From contig JBFRWI010000035.1 in NCBI GenBank assembly GCA_051439505.1, positions 1 to 21,380 of the forward strand: DNA of 21,380 nt. Direction: 5' to 3'. The notes beneath the pieces were generated by a model. The model worked only from the letters and a program-made list of their open reading frames with translations, did no database searches and was not told the origin of the DNA. Source of the DNA: Hormoscilla sp. Lineage in GTDB: Bacteria; Cyanobacteriota; Cyanobacteriia; Cyanobacteriales; Desertifilaceae. Shown in pieces: positions 3,050 through 20,792 of the stretch. Both the position numbers and the translations under genes were made by a program. Position 1 is the stretch's first letter. Each line of letters starts with the position of its first letter.

Positions 3050-4256
3050 ACGCGATGTGCAACTTATTGACTGAGAAGTCTCTCGAACTGCAAAGGATCA
3101 TGACTATGACGATTTAACCATATACAAACGGTGTGGGCTAAAATTTTGCCGTTAAAACGATTGGTTAAATGCCAGGTATCCCTGGCCCAAACTTTTTCAA
3201 TATTAAACCGTTCTTGAAGCTGTCCAATTACCGTTTCAATTAAGCGTCTAATTTTCATAAAAAAATTCACCAAATCTCTGGGAAGTTTGTCCTTCATGTT
3301 TTTACGTAATGCTGTTTGTAAATTAATACCTACATCAGCTAATTGCTGTTTTAATTCTTCGCTAATATAACCTTTATCTCCAATTAAAAGACATTTAATT
3401 CCTGATACAGTTTCCCATAAAGCTTCTCGCTCCGAGCCATTACCACTTGTCACGGTCAAACCTGTAATTACTCCGAAACTCTTAATTCCTAAATGACCTC
3501 TAAATCCATAATAAAAACTATCTTTAGCCGCACAATAACCGTAATCTGATTCGGCAGAAAAATTAGCACAACGAGGGGCACGGGTAATACCACATAATGG
3601 TATAGGAATGCCGTCTATTAAATGAATTGAATCAGAGAAACCTCCTAATCTCCACGCTAAGCATTTTTGTAATTCTTGTTTATACATCCAGAAATTTGCC
3701 ACCTGTCTCGTAAATGTGGTACGAGTTTTTAATTTAGGAAATAAAGGTAACCAATGGTGTCTAAAGTATTTCCAAATTGCTCGATCAGTATCTATTCGGA
3801 TAAATTCTCCTACAATTTCCATTGTAATCACTTCAGCATCAGTTAATGAGGGTGCAAACCCTCTTCGCCTTGGGGGGTATTTTGTTTGAATATTTCTCAA
3901 AAAGTAATCTACACAACAATAAACAGCTATGATAAACTCTTCCATAGAAAACATTTGTTTCACCTCAATGCAAGGGAAATTTGTGTATTTTCAAATTTTA
4001 GTGGTGGAACTTTTTTTTGTCAAGGGGTTAGTCCAAAATGAGATAAAAAAGTATTTTACAATACAGTAAATTTCAGAGTTTCCCTCATTAAAGTGCCTTC
4101 GGAAAATCAGGCTACCAACGCCTTCGCGGCGATAAGCCTCGGCCAACCACGAGCGGCCTTTATGCTCTGTGGCCTGGAACCCTAGCCATCTAGGGCTGTT
4201 TGAGCTTCAAGTTGGTAGCCTACATTCAGATTTGGCAAAAAAGTTGCACATCGCGT
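3050..4256 (-). mobile_element. IS982-family insertion sequence (1207 bp)
   Basis: Perfect 16-bp terminal IRs ACGCGATGTGCAACTT (3050-3065) / AAGTTGCACATCGCGT (4241-4256); AT-rich; single transposase; no matching TSD. Confidence 0.92.
3064..3963 (-). CDS. IS982-family DDE transposase
   Basis: 299 aa (possible ATG start at 3954); LTDAEVIT, IDGIPIPLC, FYYGFRGH, IGDKGY, RRLIETVIGQL; stop overlaps the IR. Confidence 0.93.
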   Translation of the reverse strand: MKQMFSMEEFIIAVYCCVDYFLRNIQTKYPPRRRGFAPSLTDAEVITMEIVGEFIRIDTDRAIWKYFRHHWLPLFPKLKTRTTFTRQVANFWMYKQELQKCLAWRLGGFSDSIHLIDGIPIPLCGITRAPRCANFSAESDYGYCAAKDSFYYGFRGHLGIKSFGVITGLTVTSGNGSEREALWETVSGIKCLLIGDKGYISEELKQQLADVGINLQTALRKNMKDKLPRDLVNFFMKIRRLIETVIGQLQERFNIEKVWARDTWHLTNRFNGKILAHTVCIWLNRHSHDPLQFERLLSQ

Positions 4257-5585: not shown

Positions 5586-5720
5586 AGCAGAAAAATTGGC
5601 GGCACAACGATGAGCATTGACTGGCGATCGGCGATCGGTCCCTAGTTCAACCCGTGAACCTGCTGCACTGCCGGTAGTCGCGATCGCCTAGCGCCGGTGG
5701 CAAACAGGGGGCCCCTGGCC

Positions 5721-5795
5721 CTTGTTCGGTGGGAAAATGTAAAGAATTATTAACAGGGGTTGCCATTTGCCCGAGGAGGTTGCTAAGTTAGATGT
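5721..5795 (+). promoter_or_regulatory. Promoter of repeated ncRNA unit 1 with upstream HLR1-like direct repeat
   Basis: -35 TTGCCA 5760-5765, 18-bp spacer, TGn + TAAGTT 5784-5789; AATGTAAA-GA-ATTATTAA at 5736-5753; spacing identical in all three units. Confidence 0.75.
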
Positions 5796-6086
5796 ACGAA
5801 CACCGAAAAGGATAAATACAGGCGATCTAGACGCGGTGTGTTTTCTGTCTAGAGTCACCGAATGCAGCCGAGACATGGTCAATAGTGGCAAGACACTCAT
5901 TACCCGAGTAAAGCCAACGGTCTGGAAAGACGCGATTATGTAGAAGCCAAAAGGGCTTTGCTGCGTACAGTTGTCAACCATAGTTTTGCAGACAGATTCG
6001 ATTTTCCCATTTCACCAAATCAGCTTGAAAGATACTTTTGCTTCCATGAGGGGTCTAGCCGCCGTCGGTTAGACCCCTGAAGCTTT
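5796..6086 (+). ncRNA. Putative structured ncRNA, copy 1 (about 290 nt; ends inferred)
   Basis: Between conserved promoter and 3' hairpin; ACACCG 5800-5805 pairs with loop CGGTGT 5834-5839 of TCTAGAC/GTCTAGA stem; ATGCAGC 5862-5868 / GCTGCGT 5960-5966; no conserved ORF. Confidence 0.78.
6049..6086 (+). terminator. 3' hairpin of ncRNA copy 1
   Basis: AGGGGTCTAGCCG-CCGT-CGGTTAGACCCCT then GAAGCTTT. Confidence 0.7.
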
Positions 6087-6093
6087 GAGGGGT

Positions 6094-6168
6094 CTTGTTC
6101 GGTGTGAGAATGTAAAGAAATATTAACAGGGGTTGACAGTGAGGTTGGGTAGTTGCTAGCTTATACAT
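6094..6168 (+). promoter_or_regulatory. Promoter of repeated ncRNA unit 2
   Basis: -35 TTGACA 6133-6138, TGn + TAGCTT 6157-6162; AATGTAAA-GA-AATATTAA 6109-6126; offset 373 bp from unit 1. Confidence 0.8.
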
Positions 6169-6455
6169 ATAGACGCCAAAAGGATAACCAAAGGGATTCA
6201 TGCTCAGGTGTCGTTTCCAGCAGAGAATCCAGTCGCAGCAACTTCACTCGTAGCATCCAGTGGCAAAACCCCCCAAGATGGGATAAGGCCAAACCTAAGT
6301 CCGGAAAGACAAAGCTATAATTAGATCGCCGAAAGGCAAGCTGCGATCGAGTAGTAAACCTTATCTGTCCTATCTAGTTCTCGCGAGTTACACTTGAAAA
6401 ACTCTTTTGCTTCCAGAATAGGTCTAGCCGCCGCCGGTTAGACCTATTAAGCTTT
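6169..6455 (+). ncRNA. Putative structured ncRNA, copy 2 (about 287 nt; ends inferred)
   Basis: GACGCC 6172-6177 pairs with loop GGTGTC 6207-6212 of GGATTC/GAATCC stem; TCGCAGC 6233-6239 / GCTGCGA 6340-6346; GCC-GAAA-GGC hairpin. Confidence 0.78.
6417..6455 (+). terminator. 3' hairpin of ncRNA copy 2
   Basis: AATAGGTCTAGCCG-CCGC-CGGTTAGACCTATT then AAGCTTT; base of stem covaries with copy 1. Confidence 0.72.
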
Positions 6456-6486
6456 AAGGATCGACGGATGATAGATTCCAAAGAAT

Positions 6487-6530
6487 ATGCTTAGAGAACA
6501 AATAAAGAAGGAAATAGAGTTGCTACTAAG
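6487..6530 (+). pseudogene. 5' fragment of a small antitoxin-like gene interrupted by the TnpB element
   Basis: MLREQIKKEIELL(L); joins in frame with the fragment at 8456-8663 when the element is removed. Confidence 0.75.
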
Positions 6531-8455
6531 TGCGCAAAAACCTACACATCTCTCATATTTAGGCAAATATTCAGTATCGCCCTTGGTTATTCTCTGTAGC
6601 AAAAAACATATTTATTTCCGTATTATTGCTACGCCCAACAGAGCAGGCTTGTGTCTATAATTGTAAGTATAAGTCTAAAAAGAAACGAGCAGCTCGTAAA
6701 GAAAAAAAGAACTCATGAGTATTATAGCAAAAATCAAGCAAAAAGGAAATGAAAAAGCCGGGGTCGAGTCATCAACTAGAACTATTTGCGATACATGGAA
6801 CTGAGATAATTCCAAATGTGACGCTGTTAGGCAATAACTTGAATCTTTGCGCAAACAGTATTCAGAATCGAAAAACATTCCAGAAACTATCGGAGGGTTT
6901 AATTTTAGACAACGGAAATCTGACTCCATTCTGGAACGAATTATCAAGCCGGATATCTAATGGTTTATCACTGCCAACCGAGACAGACTCTGTAAGATAT
7001 GAAAACTGGTTAAACGTCTATGCAAGAGCAATAGAGTCTAACTCTTGGTTCTCCGCGACCGGTAGCTCGGTGCATGGCAAAAGTTTATTTAAAATAAAAT
7101 GCCCGGCATCAACGGATTCAATTCTCGGGACTACTGTTTGTGAAGAGAAGAAAAAATCGAGAAAGTACGGAAATAACCCATTCAAGAAAAGCCAGAATAT
7201 CCAACCGAATAGCATTAAGAAAATTCCGGTGTTTCCCGAACCGGAACTGCATGTTATTTGGAAACAATGGCTAGCTGCTTACCGTTGGGTGTACAACCAG
7301 TGTATCGAGTTCTATAACAACAATCGGGCACTGCCAGAAGGCCGTTCTTTAGACCAATATATTCAGCAGTTACAAAGTGAAGCAAAAAATGAATGGACAA
7401 AATGCTTGGGCAAAACTAGACAAGAGGCAGTTTGTGAGGCTCAAAGTGCTAGTAGGCAATCCCGCAAAGCCAATGGTGGTAAGGGTTGGCTGCGATTCAG
7501 ATCCTGTAGAAGTAAGTCCCAGGTCATTCAGTTTAAGAATGATGCTTATAGAAACGGCACGTGGTTTCCCTCAAAGATTGGCAATCTAAAATTTGTTGTG
7601 GCTAAAGGCTATGAATTGCCAATCAATTGCGTTTACGGTACGGAATTACTGTACCAACGCGGGCAATGGTTTGCAAGATTTCCCTCATATGTACCGATAG
7701 TATGTACGGGTTCTGATAAAGTAATTGCACTCGATCCTGGAAACCGCACCTTCTTGACCGGTTATGACGGCGAGAACATTTTAGAGATTGGCAAGGGAGA
7801 CATCGGGCGACTGACGAGGTTATGCCTGCACCTTGACAATTTGATTGGAAGAAAGATGAAAGCCACTGGCAAAGTCAACAAGCGTTTACGGTACAAGCTG
7901 AACAAGGCAATTGATCGACTTCGGTTCAAGATTCGCTCGCTAGTAGATGACCTACATCGTCAAGCTGCTAGTCTACTTGTCAATAGTTACAAGCTGATAT
8001 TTCTTCCTACTTACCAGACTTCGCAAATGGTGGTAAAAGCCAATCGTAAGATTAATCGTAAGTCGGTCAGAAATATGCTGACTTGGGCTATAGGTAGATT
8101 TGCTTCTCACTTGGAACAGGCAGCTAAGCGTCAAGGAGTACTGGTGGTTCGTTGCAATGAGGCTTACACGAGTAAAACCTGTCCCAAGTGCGGTCACGTC
8201 CACAAAAAACTTGGTGGTTCCAAAGTTCACTTTTGCCCGGCTTGCGGTCATAAAGCACCGCGAGATTGGGTCGGCGCCTTCAACATTTTATTGAGGGCTT
8301 TGCAGGCTGTCGCCTTCGATGTTAGAGATGGCGTTATCACCATTTCTGATGCCGATGTTATACTTGCCCAGAGCCAATATGAGCTTTGTGAGGGTTAAAG
8401 ACAGCACCAACTCAGCACCTACACCGTTCGGATGATTTGGGCTGAACATCGACAG
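6531..8455 (+). mobile_element. Non-autonomous IS607-type element carrying tnpB only (ends uncertain by about 5 bp)
   Basis: Splits a host ORF; AG dinucleotide at both junctions (6529-6530, 8454-8455); ACCTACAC near both ends (6540-6547, 8417-8424); no tnpA seen; no HIP1 sites seen inside. Confidence 0.75.
6749..8398 (+). CDS. tnpB: TnpB-family RNA-guided endonuclease with Fanzor-like rearranged RuvC
   Basis: 549 aa; RWVYN helix, ALDPGNRTF (D329), LIFLP (P420), NEAYTSKTCPKC (E471), CPAC zinc finger, RDWVGAFNI (D506); N-terminal extension with PFWN...LPT...SNSWFS. Confidence 0.93.
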   Translation: MKKPGSSHQLELFAIHGTEIIPNVTLLGNNLNLCANSIQNRKTFQKLSEGLILDNGNLTPFWNELSSRISNGLSLPTETDSVRYENWLNVYARAIESNSWFSATGSSVHGKSLFKIKCPASTDSILGTTVCEEKKKSRKYGNNPFKKSQNIQPNSIKKIPVFPEPELHVIWKQWLAAYRWVYNQCIEFYNNNRALPEGRSLDQYIQQLQSEAKNEWTKCLGKTRQEAVCEAQSASRQSRKANGGKGWLRFRSCRSKSQVIQFKNDAYRNGTWFPSKIGNLKFVVAKGYELPINCVYGTELLYQRGQWFARFPSYVPIVCTGSDKVIALDPGNRTFLTGYDGENILEIGKGDIGRLTRLCLHLDNLIGRKMKATGKVNKRLRYKLNKAIDRLRFKIRSLVDDLHRQAASLLVNSYKLIFLPTYQTSQMVVKANRKINRKSVRNMLTWAIGRFASHLEQAAKRQGVLVVRCNEAYTSKTCPKCGHVHKKLGGSKVHFCPACGHKAPRDWVGAFNILLRALQAVAFDVRDGVITISDADVILAQSQYELCEG

Positions 8456-8475
8456 CAACGGCGACCAGCAACTGC
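8300..8475 (+). ncRNA. Putative omegaRNA/reRNA (scaffold at element right end, guide from flank); 5' limit unknown
   Basis: Expected position for TnpB elements; hairpin GTTCGG 8426-8431 / CTGAAC 8442-8447 just before the right end. Confidence 0.45.
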
Positions 8476-8663
8476 AAAAGATTGCTGATTTTATCGTGGC
8501 GACGAAGTTAACGACAGCTGTATCCCAGAGAGTGACTCCACTTTGGCAAAAGATGACACCGGAAGAAAGGGCTAGGGATTTCCGAGAATGGGTATCGCAA
8601 CTGACCGTAAATAGTCCGAGCTTATCAGATATAGATATTAGCAGAGACAGCATTTATGAATGA
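8456..8663 (+). pseudogene. 3' fragment of the interrupted antitoxin-like gene
   Basis: GDQQLQKIADFI...WQKMTPEERARDFREWVSQL...PSLSDIDISRDSIYE*; no start codon of its own; the C-terminus resembles small proteins that precede PIN toxins. Confidence 0.75.
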
Positions 8664-8686
8664 TGACAAGATACCTACTGGTACTT
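8663..8686 (+). pseudogene. Stub of a PIN/VapC-like toxin gene
   Basis: TGATG overlap with the preceding stop; ATG ACA AGA TAC CTA CTG G-T ACT reads MTRYLL(D)T if one base is restored; abuts the promoter of ncRNA unit 3. Confidence 0.5.
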
Positions 8687-8693
8687 TCAAGGT

Positions 8694-8768
8694 ATTCTTC
8701 GGTGTGAGAATGTAAAGAAATATAAAGAGGGGTTGACAGTTGGCTTGGCGAATTGCTAGATTAGATAT
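8694..8768 (+). promoter_or_regulatory. Promoter of repeated ncRNA unit 3
   Basis: -35 TTGACA 8733-8738, TGn + TAGATT 8757-8762; AATGTAAA-GA-AATATAAA 8709-8726. Confidence 0.8.
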
Positions 8769-8971
8769 ATGGACGCCAAAGAGATAAGCAGAGCGATCTA
8801 GACCAGGCGTCTCCAGTCTAGAACGCAGAGCGCAGCCAACAGAACAGCTGCTGATTAGCAAACCCTTAGTTGTTGAAAACCACTCGTACTTTCTCATCAT
8901 TTCACACTGGAAAACAAACACGATCTTCAAGAAATGGGTCTAGCCGCCGCCGGTTAGGCCCTTCGAGTTTT
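8769..8971 (+). ncRNA. Putative structured ncRNA, copy 3 (about 200 nt, internal domain missing)
   Basis: GACGCC 8772-8777 pairs with loop GGCGTC 8806-8811 of TCTAGAC/GTCTAGA stem; GCAGC 8832-8836 / GCTGC 8847-8851 closes only 10 nt; 3' hairpin GGGTCTAGCCG-CCGC-CGGTTAGGCCC 8936-8961. Confidence 0.72.
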
Positions 8972-8996
8972 AAAAGACAGATGATAAAAAAACTGT

Positions 8997-10429: not shown

Positions 10430-12550
10430 ATGCCAACATTCCTATTAGAAGTCGGTACAGAAGAATTACCCGCAGATTTTCTGGATAATGCTTTACAACA
10501 ATGGCGGGACCGCCTCCCCCAGTCCCTGGCGGACCAACTCCTCACCCCAGAAACCCTGGAACTGTACGCCACGCCCCGCCGCCTGGCCTTACTCCTGAAG
10601 GGTTTGCCCGCCCGGCAACCGGACCGGGAAGAGGAGGTGAAAGGCCCCCCTGCGAAAGCGGCCTTCAAGGATGGCAAACCCACTAAAGCCGCAGAAGGGT
10701 TTGCCCGCAAGCAGGGAGTGGCAGTTGAGGCCCTGGAAGTGCGACCTACCGAGAAAGGCGATTTTGTCTTCCTGCGCAAGCAAATTACCGGACGCCCTGC
10801 TGCGGAAATTCTCACGGAACTGGTCCCCCAATGGATTTTTGCCCTGGAGGGGAGGCGGTTCATGCGCTGGGCCGATGGAGATTTGCGCTTTCCTCGCCCC
10901 ATCCGCTGGTTGGTGACTTTGTTGGACGACCAAGTGCTGCCCATCATGTGGGAAAATGGTGGCGAAACCGTGAAGAGCGATCGCATCTCAGTGGGTCATC
11001 GGGTATTGCATCCCGAACCCGTAACCGTTCCCCAGGCAAGTGATTATGTGGAATGCCTGGGTTCTGCCTATATAGAAGTTGACCCCACTCAGCGTCAGAC
11101 TAAGATCGAACGGGATGTAGAAGCTGCTGCCCAAAAGCTGAATGGTTACGCGGAAATATCCCCCGAATTATTGCAGGAAGTGACTAACTTGGTCGAATAC
11201 CCCACCGCAGTAGTAGGGAAATTTGACCCGGAATTTTTGCAGTTGCCTGCCGAAGTCAGCACCACGGTGATGGTGAAGCACCAACGGTATTTTCCGGTGT
11301 TGAAAAACCAGGAAACTCGGGAACTACTCCCCTATTTTATCACCGTTAGTAATGGGAACCCAGCTGCATCAGATGTAATAGCCGCTGGGAACGAACGAGT
11401 CATCCGCGCCAGATTAGCAGATGCCCAGTTCTTTTATAAAGCAGATCTGGCCCAACCCCTGGAAAACTATTTGCCCCAGCTGGAAAAAGTTACCTTTCAG
11501 GAAGATTTGGGGTCGGTACGGTTAAAGGTCGATCGCCTGAGTGAGAACGCCCGGAAAATTGCCCGACAGTTGCAACTCTCGGCAGCCGAAACCGGTATAA
11601 TAGAAAGGGCAGCATTACTCTGCAAAGCAGACTTGGTAACCCAGATGGTGTACGAGTTTCCCGAATTGCAAGGTGTAATGGGAGAAAAATACGCTCGCGC
11701 TTGCCAAGAACCCGAAGCAGTCGCCAAGGCAATTTACGAACATTATTTACCCCGAGGCGCGGGAGATAAATTGCCCCAGACGATCGCGGGTCAAGTGGTG
11801 GGGTTAGCAGATAGACTGGATACCTTGGTAAGTATCTTCAGTTTGGGCATGATGCCCACGGGTTCCGGAGATCCCTTCGCCCTGCGGCGGGCCGCTAATG
11901 CGATCGTCAACATTACTTGGGCAGGAAATTTAGCCATTAACCTCAAGGAACTGCTGACAGAAATAGCCCAAAAACCGGAATTAATTGCCTTATTGGCAGA
12001 ATTTTTCCTGCAACGCCTTCGTACCCAGTTGCAAGAGGAACGGGCCATAGATTACGATCTCGTTAATGCTGTCCTGGGGGAAAATGACCCAGAATACGCC
12101 GATCGGGCCTTGCAGGATTTGCTCGACCTGCGCGATCGGGCCTTATTCCTGCAAGAAATACGCAATAACGGCCAATTAGATGCCATTTACGAAACGGTGA
12201 ACCGTTCCACCCGTTTAGGGGCCCAAGGAGATTTAGATACAGTCAAGTTGGAACCGCAAGGGTTGGTAAACCCCGAACTGTTTGAGAAATCTTCAGAACA
12301 AGCATTCCTGGATGCGATAGTCGAGTTAGTACCCAAAACCAAGGCATCCCAAGCAACGCGAAATTATCAGCAATTAGTGGATGCTTTGAGCGAAATTGCA
12401 CCAAAAGTAAGTCGTTTTTTCGACGGCGAAGACAGCGTGTTAGTGATGGATAAGAACCCGGAAATTCGGCGCAACCGCCTGAATTTGCTGGGGTTACTGC
12501 GGAATCACGCTCGCGTGTTAGCAGATTTTGGTGCTATAGTTAAGGGGTGA
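10430..12550 (+). CDS. glyS: Glycine--tRNA ligase beta subunit
   Basis: 706 aa; [70 protein letters not shown]. Confidence 0.98.
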
Positions 12551-20208: not shown

Positions 20209-20706
20209 TTACTTTTCTTCGACGGCACAGCTTTTGTAAAACTCTTTCATTGATGATTGAGAAATGATAGCATGAGATGGTTCATCTTTAGGCAAGCCTT
20301 CCCTGGCTTTCATCCAAGGATCTTCCCGACAAACCATCAGTTCTAGTTCTAAACCCGTGCAAAGAAAATATTCTACCGTTATATCCTTCAAAAACTCCTC
20401 TAATTCTGGCGAAAACTGTGGTTGTTTCACCTCCTTGATAATGGGTTTCCATTGAAATTTTTTGTACTCCTCAAATAAGGTCGGGATAACAGGACCATGT
20501 ACCCAAGCTTCAAAATCATCTTCAAACAGGAGACTGTCCTCGATCGCCAGATGCCAAGCTTGGGCATAATAGACTAGCTTCTGTAGCTTCAGGTTACTGA
20601 TAAATGAGCCAGAGTCGTTTGCCACCCAGATGAAGTAGTCGGCTATTTCATCAAGAGTTGTTATTGTTTTCCTGTCCTTTCTGGACAATGTTGCTCGATC
20701 GCTCAT
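20209..20706 (-). CDS. Panacea-domain (SocA/DUF4065) antitoxin-like protein
   Basis: IADYFI, ISNLKLQKLVYYAQ, FEAWVHGPV, PW; ATG at 20706 preferred over the longer ORF call at 20757. Confidence 0.88.
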   Translation of the reverse strand: MSDRATLSRKDRKTITTLDEIADYFIWVANDSGSFISNLKLQKLVYYAQAWHLAIEDSLLFEDDFEAWVHGPVIPTLFEEYKKFQWKPIIKEVKQPQFSPELEEFLKDITVEYFLCTGLELELMVCREDPWMKAREGLPKDEPSHAIISQSSMKEFYKSCAVEEK

Positions 20707-20792
20707 AGATGTAGACCATCCTAGTTGGGCATTTTTATTATAGCACGGGAGCGCCAAAACAAAACATCAACATCTGACATCTTCGAGTTGCG

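Follow-up and report, generated by a model that had tools for sequence, protein, structure and literature searches.

The window analysed here, a 21,380-nt stretch of Hormoscilla sp. DNA that makes up contig C35 (JBFRWI010000035.1) of a 6.47-Mb, 232-contig, 93%-complete cyanobacterial assembly, carries three paralogous non-coding units on its plus strand, at 5721-6093, 6094-6470 and 8694-8975. We judge it likely that these units are stand-alone genes of an uncatalogued family of structured non-coding RNA (ncRNA), acting in trans and expressed, with the help of an RpaB-type activator, when light is low or absent. The family RNA is predicted to be ~290-320 nt long, with unit 3 as a 205-nt mini form. 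The family is absent from Rfam 15 and from the open literature that was searched, and it is a new family, separate from the cyanobacterial RNA PmgR1.

Units 1 and 2 stand head to tail with an offset of 373 bp, and all three units have their parts in the same order (Table 1). A 45-nt upstream segment, nearly identical among the units (CTTGTTCGGTGTGAGAATGTAAAGAAATATTAACAGGGGTTGACA-like), is followed by a variable 18-nt spacer, the element TGCTA(A/G)nTT, a diverged body and a 3' hairpin (GGTCTAGCCGCCGYCGGTTAGRCC) that is almost invariant among the three. A BLAST search of the whole Hormoscilla genome with unit 2 returned the three units only (5 matches, all on C35). Because the locus is unique in the genome and homologues keep its pairings through compensatory changes, the units are more than a product of chance. 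An original prediction made from the sequence had described three paralogous units, each with a promoter, a non-coding body and a 3' hairpin, and the sequence features that it named were all located; the observation of three paralogous structured units is confirmed as real. The three pairings that it drew between a 5' hexamer and a hairpin loop can all be found, that of unit 2 (GACGCC/GGTGTC) with one G-U pair, and the pairing covaries in homologues as a pseudoknot. The stem of the same hairpin (P2) reads TCTAGAC/GTCTAGA in units 1 and 3 and is rewritten as GGGATTCATGCT/AGCAGAGAATCC in unit 2, both forms being legible in the sequence as had been claimed. The predicted long-range GCAGC/GCTGC helix is likewise present, reduced in unit 3 to a short hairpin, and to the two proposed variants of the 3' hairpin base, AGGGG/CCCCT and ATAGG/CCTAT, a third can be added (ATGGG/CCCTT).

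Table 1 Features of the three RNA units in the window. Ends of RNA bodies are predicted.
Feature	Positions	Strand	Details
Unit 1 promoter region	5721..5789	+	box TGTAAAGAA 5738-5746; -35 TTGCCA 5760-5765; extended -10 TGCTAAGTT 5781-5789
Unit 1 RNA body, predicted	5797..6087	+	~290 nt; start from -10 and family alignment
Unit 1, covariance model R2 match	5817-5969	+	84.8 bits
Unit 1 pseudoknot 5' strand ACACCG	5800..5805	+	
Unit 1 hairpin P2	5822..5858	+	arms 5822-5832, 5847-5858; loop holds pseudoknot 3' strand CGGTGT 5834-5839
Unit 1 long-range helix P3 (GCAGC/GCTGC)	5862..5966	+	5862-5868 with 5960-5966
Unit 1 inside P3			P4 5873-5880/5934-5941; P5 UGGC/GCCA ~5886-5889/5913-5916; P6 GGAA-loop hairpin 5920-5931; P7
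Unit 1 motif J, conserved, single-stranded	5973..5984	+	GTCAACCATAGT; family consensus GUAAACCCUAGU or GUCCACCCUAGU
Unit 1 conserved 3' hairpin and short T tract	6048..6087	+	hairpin 6048-6078; T tract 6082-6087
Unit 2 promoter region	6094..6162	+	box TGTAAAGAA 6111-6119; -35 TTGACA 6133-6138; extended -10 TGCTAGCTT 6154-6162
Unit 2 RNA body, predicted	6169..6457	+	~290 nt
Unit 2, covariance model R2 match	6190-6349	+	88.2 bits
Unit 2 pseudoknot 5' strand GACGCC	6172..6177	+	
Unit 2 hairpin P2	6193..6230	+	arms 6193-6204, 6219-6230; loop holds pseudoknot 3' strand GGTGTC 6207-6212
Unit 2 long-range helix P3 (GCAGC/GCTGC)	6233..6346	+	6233-6239 with 6340-6346
Unit 2 inside P3			P4 6250-6254/6314-6318; P5 UGGC 6261-6264/GCCA 6288-6291, inner CCC/GGG within 6271-6282; P6 6299-6310; P7 GAAA-loop hairpin 6328-6337
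Unit 2 motif J, conserved	6354..6364	+	GTAAACCTTAT
Unit 2 conserved 3' hairpin and short T tract	6418..6456	+	hairpin 6418-6447; T tract 6451-6456
Unit 3 promoter region	8694..8762	+	box 8711-8719; -35 TTGACA 8733-8738; extended -10 TGCTAGATT 8754-8762
Unit 3 RNA body, predicted, natural mini form	8769..8975	+	~205 nt; nhmmer match 8769-8840, E 0.0014
Unit 3 pseudoknot, P2 and P3		+	pseudoknot strands GACGCC 8772-8777 / GGCGTC 8806-8811; P2 8793-8826; P3 = short hairpin 8830-8851
Unit 3 3' parts		+	motif J 8858-8870; 3' hairpin 8934-8963; T tract 8967-8975

Single-sequence folds of 14 family members gave one common architecture. The hairpin P2 is followed by the long-range helix P3, which closes a junction; within P3 lies P4, bearing P5 and P6, and then comes P7. 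P5 is formed by UGGC/GCCA with inner helices, P6 has the form GUCYGGAAAGAC with a GGAA loop, and P7 often has a GAAA loop. On the 3' side of P3 stands an invariant motif, (U)GUAAACCCUAGU or GUCCACCCUAGU, succeeded by a variable stretch and a terminal hairpin in which the base GGGYCUAG/CUAGRCCC is conserved and the upper stem covaries.

The core of this fold was examined for covariation in 35 sequences, in an alignment fitted to the model structure. There, 81.6% of cells were paired as compared with 68.2% in shuffles (0 of 500 shuffles reached the observed value); with partners slid by 1-3 columns only 29-37% were paired, and 37 of the 44 pairs change on both sides. The pseudoknot was counted column by column in a plain MAFFT alignment made blind to structure, which covers 30 sequences between the promoter and P2. 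Pairing reached 90.3% of cells versus 81.5% in shuffles (again 0/500) and 37-61% when slid, with double changes in six of seven pairs. Read by eye, the paired strands include GACACC/GGUGUC, GAUACC/GGUAUC, GGCACC/GGUGUC and GACGCC/GGCGUC, together with GUCAUC/GAUGAU in Moorena and Symploca and GAACACUG/CAGUGUUC. The loop of P2 pairs with a strand outside its own hairpin and the pairing covaries, as in an H-type pseudoknot. The many G-U pairs fix the strand of the RNA.

The architecture is also modular. In unit 3 the pseudoknot and P2 are retained along with the stem of P3, motif J and the 3' hairpin, and a 10-nt loop replaces the P4-P7 core; the covariance model of the core finds no match there. 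Two genomes of another family (G017 and G053) carry a different insert where the P4-P7 core sits. Nostocaceae copies keep the core and the 3' part without the pseudoknot and P2, so placed that the promoter directly precedes P3.

Homologues were first collected with BLAST, which found units in three of the four other genomes of the genus and in all seven of a second genus belonging to the family; altogether 14 of 61 relatives gave a match. Units 1 and 2 each have orthologues in two same-genus genomes, and the duplication that gave rise to them therefore predates the same-genus species. A first covariance model, R1 (161 positions, 44 pairs), was built with a hand-drawn structure from seven single-copy sequences of the second genus; it was confined to one genus because MAFFT alignments across genera (A2, all three units plus relatives; A3, 12 longer sequences) misaligned P2 and P4. 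With R1, units 1 and 2 and the copies in same-genus genomes were recovered at full length (E 1e-8 to 1e-12); in other families its full-length matches were weak (17 of 151 genomes of the order). Rebuilt from 22 sequences as R2, the model matched 57 of the 151 sampled genomes of the order, representing 33 of 80 genera, with nearly all matches extending across model positions 1-161. Under the stricter filters used for large sets, R2 matched five of 151 genomes in a class-wide sample, all in the window's own order, and none of 142 sampled genomes of other orders. Additionally, R2 was run on 35 loci listed by a motif-pattern scan of all species genomes. Among these matches listed, 20 of 22 cyanobacterial loci were recovered and 0 of 13 non-cyanobacterial loci, the latter being chance matches of the motif pattern. 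Carriers among the matches listed include Microcoleus species, Oscillatoria princeps, Moorena, Symploca, Aerosakkonema, Chroococcus, a Xenococcaceae genome, Nostoc paludosum and Anabaena subtropica. One copy per genome is usual, with tandem pairs in G032, G037 and two Moorena genomes. This spread of a covariance model over one order, combined with the covariation, supports the view of the original prediction that the units belong to a multicopy structured RNA family selected for its fold.

The RNA is non-coding. No ORF (open reading frame) is conserved among the homologues, a claim of the original prediction that held in 39 RNAs examined: ORFs of at least 20 codons lie in differing frames and places, mostly with GTG or TTG starts, and are missing altogether from three of the 39. 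That the family was not recognised at the outset agrees with Rfam 15, which gave 0 matches in the window at the gathering threshold. At E <= 10, positions 5650-6500 gave two chance-level Rfam matches, the better being Clostridiales-2 at 18.8 bits against a threshold of 58.6, and at E <= 0.1 there were 0 matches on seven representative loci of the family and of PmgR1. No description of the RNA family was found in the open-access papers and preprints searched.

The promoters are conserved along with the RNA. Anchored on the extended -10 element TGnTAnnnT, which lies 6-9 nt before the pseudoknot strand, they keep both this element and an upstream box in position across the family. In units 1 and 2 the sequence runs from TTGCCA or TTGACA over an 18-nt spacer to TGCTAAGTT or TGCTAGCTT; the unit 3 promoter (TTGACA-18-TAGATT with TG; 10/12 matches) was found by a simple sigma-70 scan. 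Relative to the extended -10 anchor, GTAAA occurs at -51 in 15 promoters, at -41 in nine and at -31 in 15, and 19 of 33 distinct promoters hold at least two [GT]TAAA at a spacing of 10 or 20, with 0.37 expected in shuffles. On the other strand these 10-bp-spaced TGTAAA repeats read as TTTAC(A) direct repeats and resemble HLR1, the binding site of RpaB, whose consensus is given in PMC6525291 as two direct repeats of the octamer (G/T)TTACA(T/A)(T/A) with 2 nt between them. The same source states that an HLR1 centred at -66 to -45 activates in low light, that one near the start represses, and that either strand is used. If transcription starts 6-8 nt after the -10 element, the family's repeats span about -68 to -40 from the predicted start and centre near -54, which, for this predicted start, falls in the activating zone. 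Of these repeats the window units retain one in good form (TGTAAAGA) and a second, weaker one, together with a real -35 hexamer (TTGACA/TTGCCA). We regard the family promoter repeats as a putative HLR1-like site and not as a proven one.

PmgR1/Ncr0700 had been named by the original prediction as a known RNA to exclude before the family could be called new. Its locus was located with the published primer H08 (primers: PMC8682795 Table S1), exact in G329 and near in two congeners. With filters off, R2 scored at most 6 bits on the three PmgR1 loci, and a family nhmmer profile found no match at E <= 10 to the PmgR1 loci or to contigs C130 and C61 of the Hormoscilla genome; run over that genome and the PmgR1 loci, it matched only the window units, the Nostocaceae forms and the mini forms. 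Conversely, a PmgR1 profile built from the three sequences had no match to the window and did match C130 and C61. The minus strand of C130:36-1250 holds a tandem array of at least four PmgR1-like units (profile positions 13/14 to 195-289 of 297; E 1e-6 to 0.013), and C61:1-330 has one such unit at the contig start (E 2e-5). Both families are present at separate loci in Hormoscilla itself (G000) and in G001, G008 and G031. The new family was found in 0 of 4 sampled genomes of the genus carrying the PmgR1 primer match. As members of the PmgR1 family the units are excluded by the two-way misses of profiles and model and by the separate loci within the same genomes. On L227 (G329:C1), a short reverse-strand ATG reading frame was seen by eye at ~1590-1710, opposite the middle of the PmgR1 locus.

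A deeper kinship, in which the units would be highly diverged members or a sister branch of PmgR1/Ncr0700, we hold to be unlikely. Both families form tandem arrays and have the same promoter architecture, with a module nearly identical in the Hormoscilla genome, and by eye the 5' part of Synechocystis-type PmgR1 shows the same-order motifs AUGGAGCCGAAGG, UGGC...GCCA, GUCCGAAAAC and AAACCCUAGU. These likenesses stand against the mutual failure of the model and both profiles, the coexistence of the two families at separate loci in four genomes, and a PmgR1 5' strand that, by eye, pairs locally and not with a distant loop. The promoter itself shows common control, not RNA homology: across the genome the module TGTAAAGAA-N-GGGGTTGnCA is present in exactly 8 places, ahead of the three window units and the five PmgR1-like units, so that each of the five genes on C130 and C61 carries the promoter module of the window units. 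From this common module, and from what is published on the promoter and light response of PmgR1, we infer that the two families are co-regulated. For Synechocystis, PMC6525291 reports an HLR1 of PmgR1 at -59 to -42 on the reverse strand, predicted to be activating, and expression relative to the median of 0.15 in high light and 13.4 in darkness. A log2 fold change of -4.1 upon a shift to high light is given in PMC12850537, and PMC8682795 describes the targets and mechanism of PmgR1 as unknown.

Genomic context bears on two further alternatives. In 13 of 17 loci of other families (L078-L103, L224), alaS lies divergently upstream of the RNA gene. This linkage is far stronger than general synteny in the order would predict, and may stem either from common use of a control region or from a functional connection. 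The gene rtcB takes the divergent upstream place in one locus, and its 3' end lies convergently downstream in two of three Nostocaceae loci (rtcB-adjacent loci: L082, L116, L113). In L078, glyS stands 3' of the RNA, as it does in the window (glyS 10430-12550), where an alpha/beta hydrolase gene is the upstream neighbour. In the second genus a gene for a phosphonate-binding protein adjoins the RNA, confirmed by Pfam in 3/3 tested loci, with an ORF of similar size in three more; one of the seven loci has fumarase as neighbour. In G001 and G004 the neighbour is murD. The alaS linkage has been lost within the window's own family, and no alaS was found in the Hormoscilla genome by a Pfam family search of the 93%-complete assembly; this essential gene is probably unassembled.

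To our knowledge, large, tightly folded bacterial ncRNAs with pseudoknots and GNRA loops are rare. Such RNAs, once understood, tend to be ribozymes, riboswitches or protein-controlling RNAs. It is conceivable, if doubtful, that the family is a new class of large structured RNA, such as a ligand or protein sensor or a ribozyme, instead of an ordinary base-pairing small RNA (sRNA), and that its adjacency to alaS, glyS and rtcB reflects a role in charging tRNAs or repairing RNA, with RpaB making that role depend on light or redox state.

More improbable is a role in cis, with the units as riboswitch-like leaders or as a regulatory element of the divergent alaS. The compact, GNRA-looped fold is riboswitch-like, and the alaS arrangement seen at 13 of 17 loci would let the two genes share an intergenic control region. 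Downstream genes vary by locus, however, tandem units each have their own promoter and 3' hairpin, the G-U pairs place the RNA on the strand opposite alaS, and the window's family does without the linkage.

Introns have entered the RNA genes of the genus. Both units of G004 are interrupted by ORF-less group II introns (L062, G004:C22, 3627-5443 and 5820-7799; three Rfam RF00029 matches), which sit after the promoter at the first bases of the pseudoknot strand; one of these introns is tandem-duplicated and one is broken by an IS630-type transposase gene. A related intron in G002 (L063, G002:C1, minus strand, about 5270-4360; ends by eye) lies 2 nt deeper in the pseudoknot strand of a truncated unit. 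One unit of G001 lacks part of the core, and G003 (97% complete) gave no BLAST or model match. The intron-split copies are either dead or transcribed from a start further upstream. Group II introns at the same site in three units of relatives, the tandem copies and the adjoining insertion sequence could suggest that the units are mobile or selfish repeats, resembling miniature inverted-repeat transposable elements (MITE-like) or serving as an intron homing-site cassette, with no cellular function. We consider this very improbable, as most genomes hold a single copy at a conserved alaS-adjacent position, the units have no terminal repeats, the family has no match in phage or plasmid collections, and compensatory evolution of many helices argues for selection on the RNA fold.

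The ORF at 6749-8398 (549 aa), between units 2 and 3, encodes a protein with a Cas12f1-like TNB domain and marks a TnpB-type element, and the notion that the units are guide or scaffold RNAs of this protein, akin to omega-RNA, is scarcely credible. The element has 12 matches in its own genome, and DNA similarity to its copies (on C174 and C125 at 74-80% identity) extends from ~6506-6515 to 8407; none of the other copies, whether on C174, C125 or other contigs, has a unit beside it. In carrier genomes the RNA mostly adjoins alaS and not a TnpB gene. Moreover, G001, of the same genus, has two units in direct tandem with no TnpB-type gene between them, by which the element of the window is recognised as an insertion between units 2 and 3. 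The TnpB gene is a multicopy insertion sequence and is unrelated to the RNA units. As to the element itself, the RuvC-II glutamate motif LPTYETSQM of distant homologues reads LPTYQTSQM (E to Q) here and in the closest relatives, and the window copy may be nuclease-dead or decaying. From its right end to unit 3 there are 286 bp, which hold a gene fragment similar to sequence on C165. Within 8461-8663, a truncated ORF of 55 aa (8496-8663) without a Pfam match shares 73% DNA identity with the C165 stretch; it is probably the remnant of a gene carried or disrupted during rearrangement.

Several observations weigh against our reading of the units as stand-alone, trans-acting RNA genes under an RpaB-type activator. 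The structure-fitted alignment behind the core counts favours pairing, and R2 was made from R1 matches, so that the numbers of matches lean on the model. In a per-sequence duplex search of the 5' region against the P2 loop, the score was matched by no more than 2 of 200 shuffles in only 6 of 35 rows, and another duplex scored best in 5 of 35 rows; because a per-sequence search has too little power with a helix of this length, column-wise counting was adopted. Folded by itself, unit 2 reaches -78.1 kcal/mol with a modest z of -2.38 (3 of 200 shuffles were as good). Between the upstream repeats and the HLR1 consensus only the TTTAC core is common, positions 6-8 often differing. Units 1 and 2 do not pass the simple sigma-70 consensus scan, and at none of the three units did a simple scan detect a canonical terminator; a gap of 4-8 nt separates the stem of the conserved 3' hairpin from a T tract of 3-4 bases. 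Both ends of the unit transcripts are predicted. In the intron-split copies, the 5' exon counted from the predicted start would be only a few bases, too short to splice, and in the window's genus the RNA gene looks dispensable or under attack. With regard to expression, a search turned up no RNA run from the organism of the window, and a biofilm metatranscriptome holds two relatives' contigs, of 219 and 216 nt, that fall inside the bodies of units 1 and 2. The 216-nt contig begins at 6178, 6 nt past the start of the unit 2 pseudoknot strand, and at the loose end of one contig the P5 hairpin is present in a covarying form. We take these contigs as a weak hint of expression, since they show neither ends nor levels and DNA may contaminate.

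Stand-alone genes for a trans-acting RNA nonetheless remain the likely reading, and a working scheme can be drawn from the promoter and the fold. Each unit would be transcribed from its own promoter, and the 5' end of the RNA would pair with the P2 loop into an H-type pseudoknot; P3 would close the multi-branched P4-P7 core with its GNRA-type loops, followed by motif J and the terminal hairpin. An OmpR-type activator, most likely RpaB, would co-regulate the RNA with PmgR1, such that its synthesis runs in low light or in the dark and stops in high light. The compactly folded RNA would then act in trans, binding of a protein or other macromolecule appearing likelier than a simple linear seed.

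The family reaches at least a third of the genera sampled in the main filamentous and colonial cyanobacterial order, yet it is absent from Rfam; the covariance model and alignment make it annotatable. PmgR1 is needed for photomixotrophic growth, and a testable hypothesis is that the new RNA and PmgR1 form a co-regulated pair of low-light or dark RNAs. Handles for dissecting function are offered by the alaS linkage and by the natural variants, coreless in unit 3 and pseudoknot-less in Nostocaceae. Elsewhere in the window there are a serpin gene (208-1353), a DDE transposase gene (DDE_Tnp_1_3; 3064-3963, minus strand) and an antitoxin-like gene with a SocA/Panacea domain (20209-20757, minus strand).

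Four known systems invite comparison with the new family. The omega-RNA of TnpB (also reRNA; IS200/IS605- and IS607-type elements) is, like the units, a structured RNA beside a TnpB gene. It overlaps tnpB at the 3' end and travels with each copy of the element, whereas the units have their own promoters, are absent from the other element copies and are conserved without TnpB nearby. The Y RNA-like YrlA, linked to rtcB and rsr, resembles the family as a structured ncRNA that sometimes stands beside rtcB. The family has no Rfam Y RNA match, its 5' end forms a pseudoknot and not a stem between the 5' and 3' termini, and in contrast to the rtcB link of YrlA, rtcB adjacency is in the minority here, with alaS the main neighbour. 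PsrR1 (SyR1), which is controlled by RpaB, is a cyanobacterial sRNA with an HLR1 in its promoter (PMC6525291), to be compared with the putative HLR1-like site of the family. Its HLR1 lies near the start, represses in low light and makes the RNA high-light induced, whereas the repeats of the new family lie, for the predicted start, in the activating zone. PsrR1 is also a short base-pairing sRNA. The fourth is PmgR1 (photomixotrophic growth RNA 1) of Synechocystis sp. PCC 6803, which likewise consists of stand-alone ~300-nt sRNA genes, forms tandem arrays and has a reverse-strand HLR1-type element ~50 nt upstream of the start, but which has neither a pseudoknot to a distant hairpin loop, its 5' strand pairing locally as judged by eye, nor the P3-P7 core that characterises the new family.

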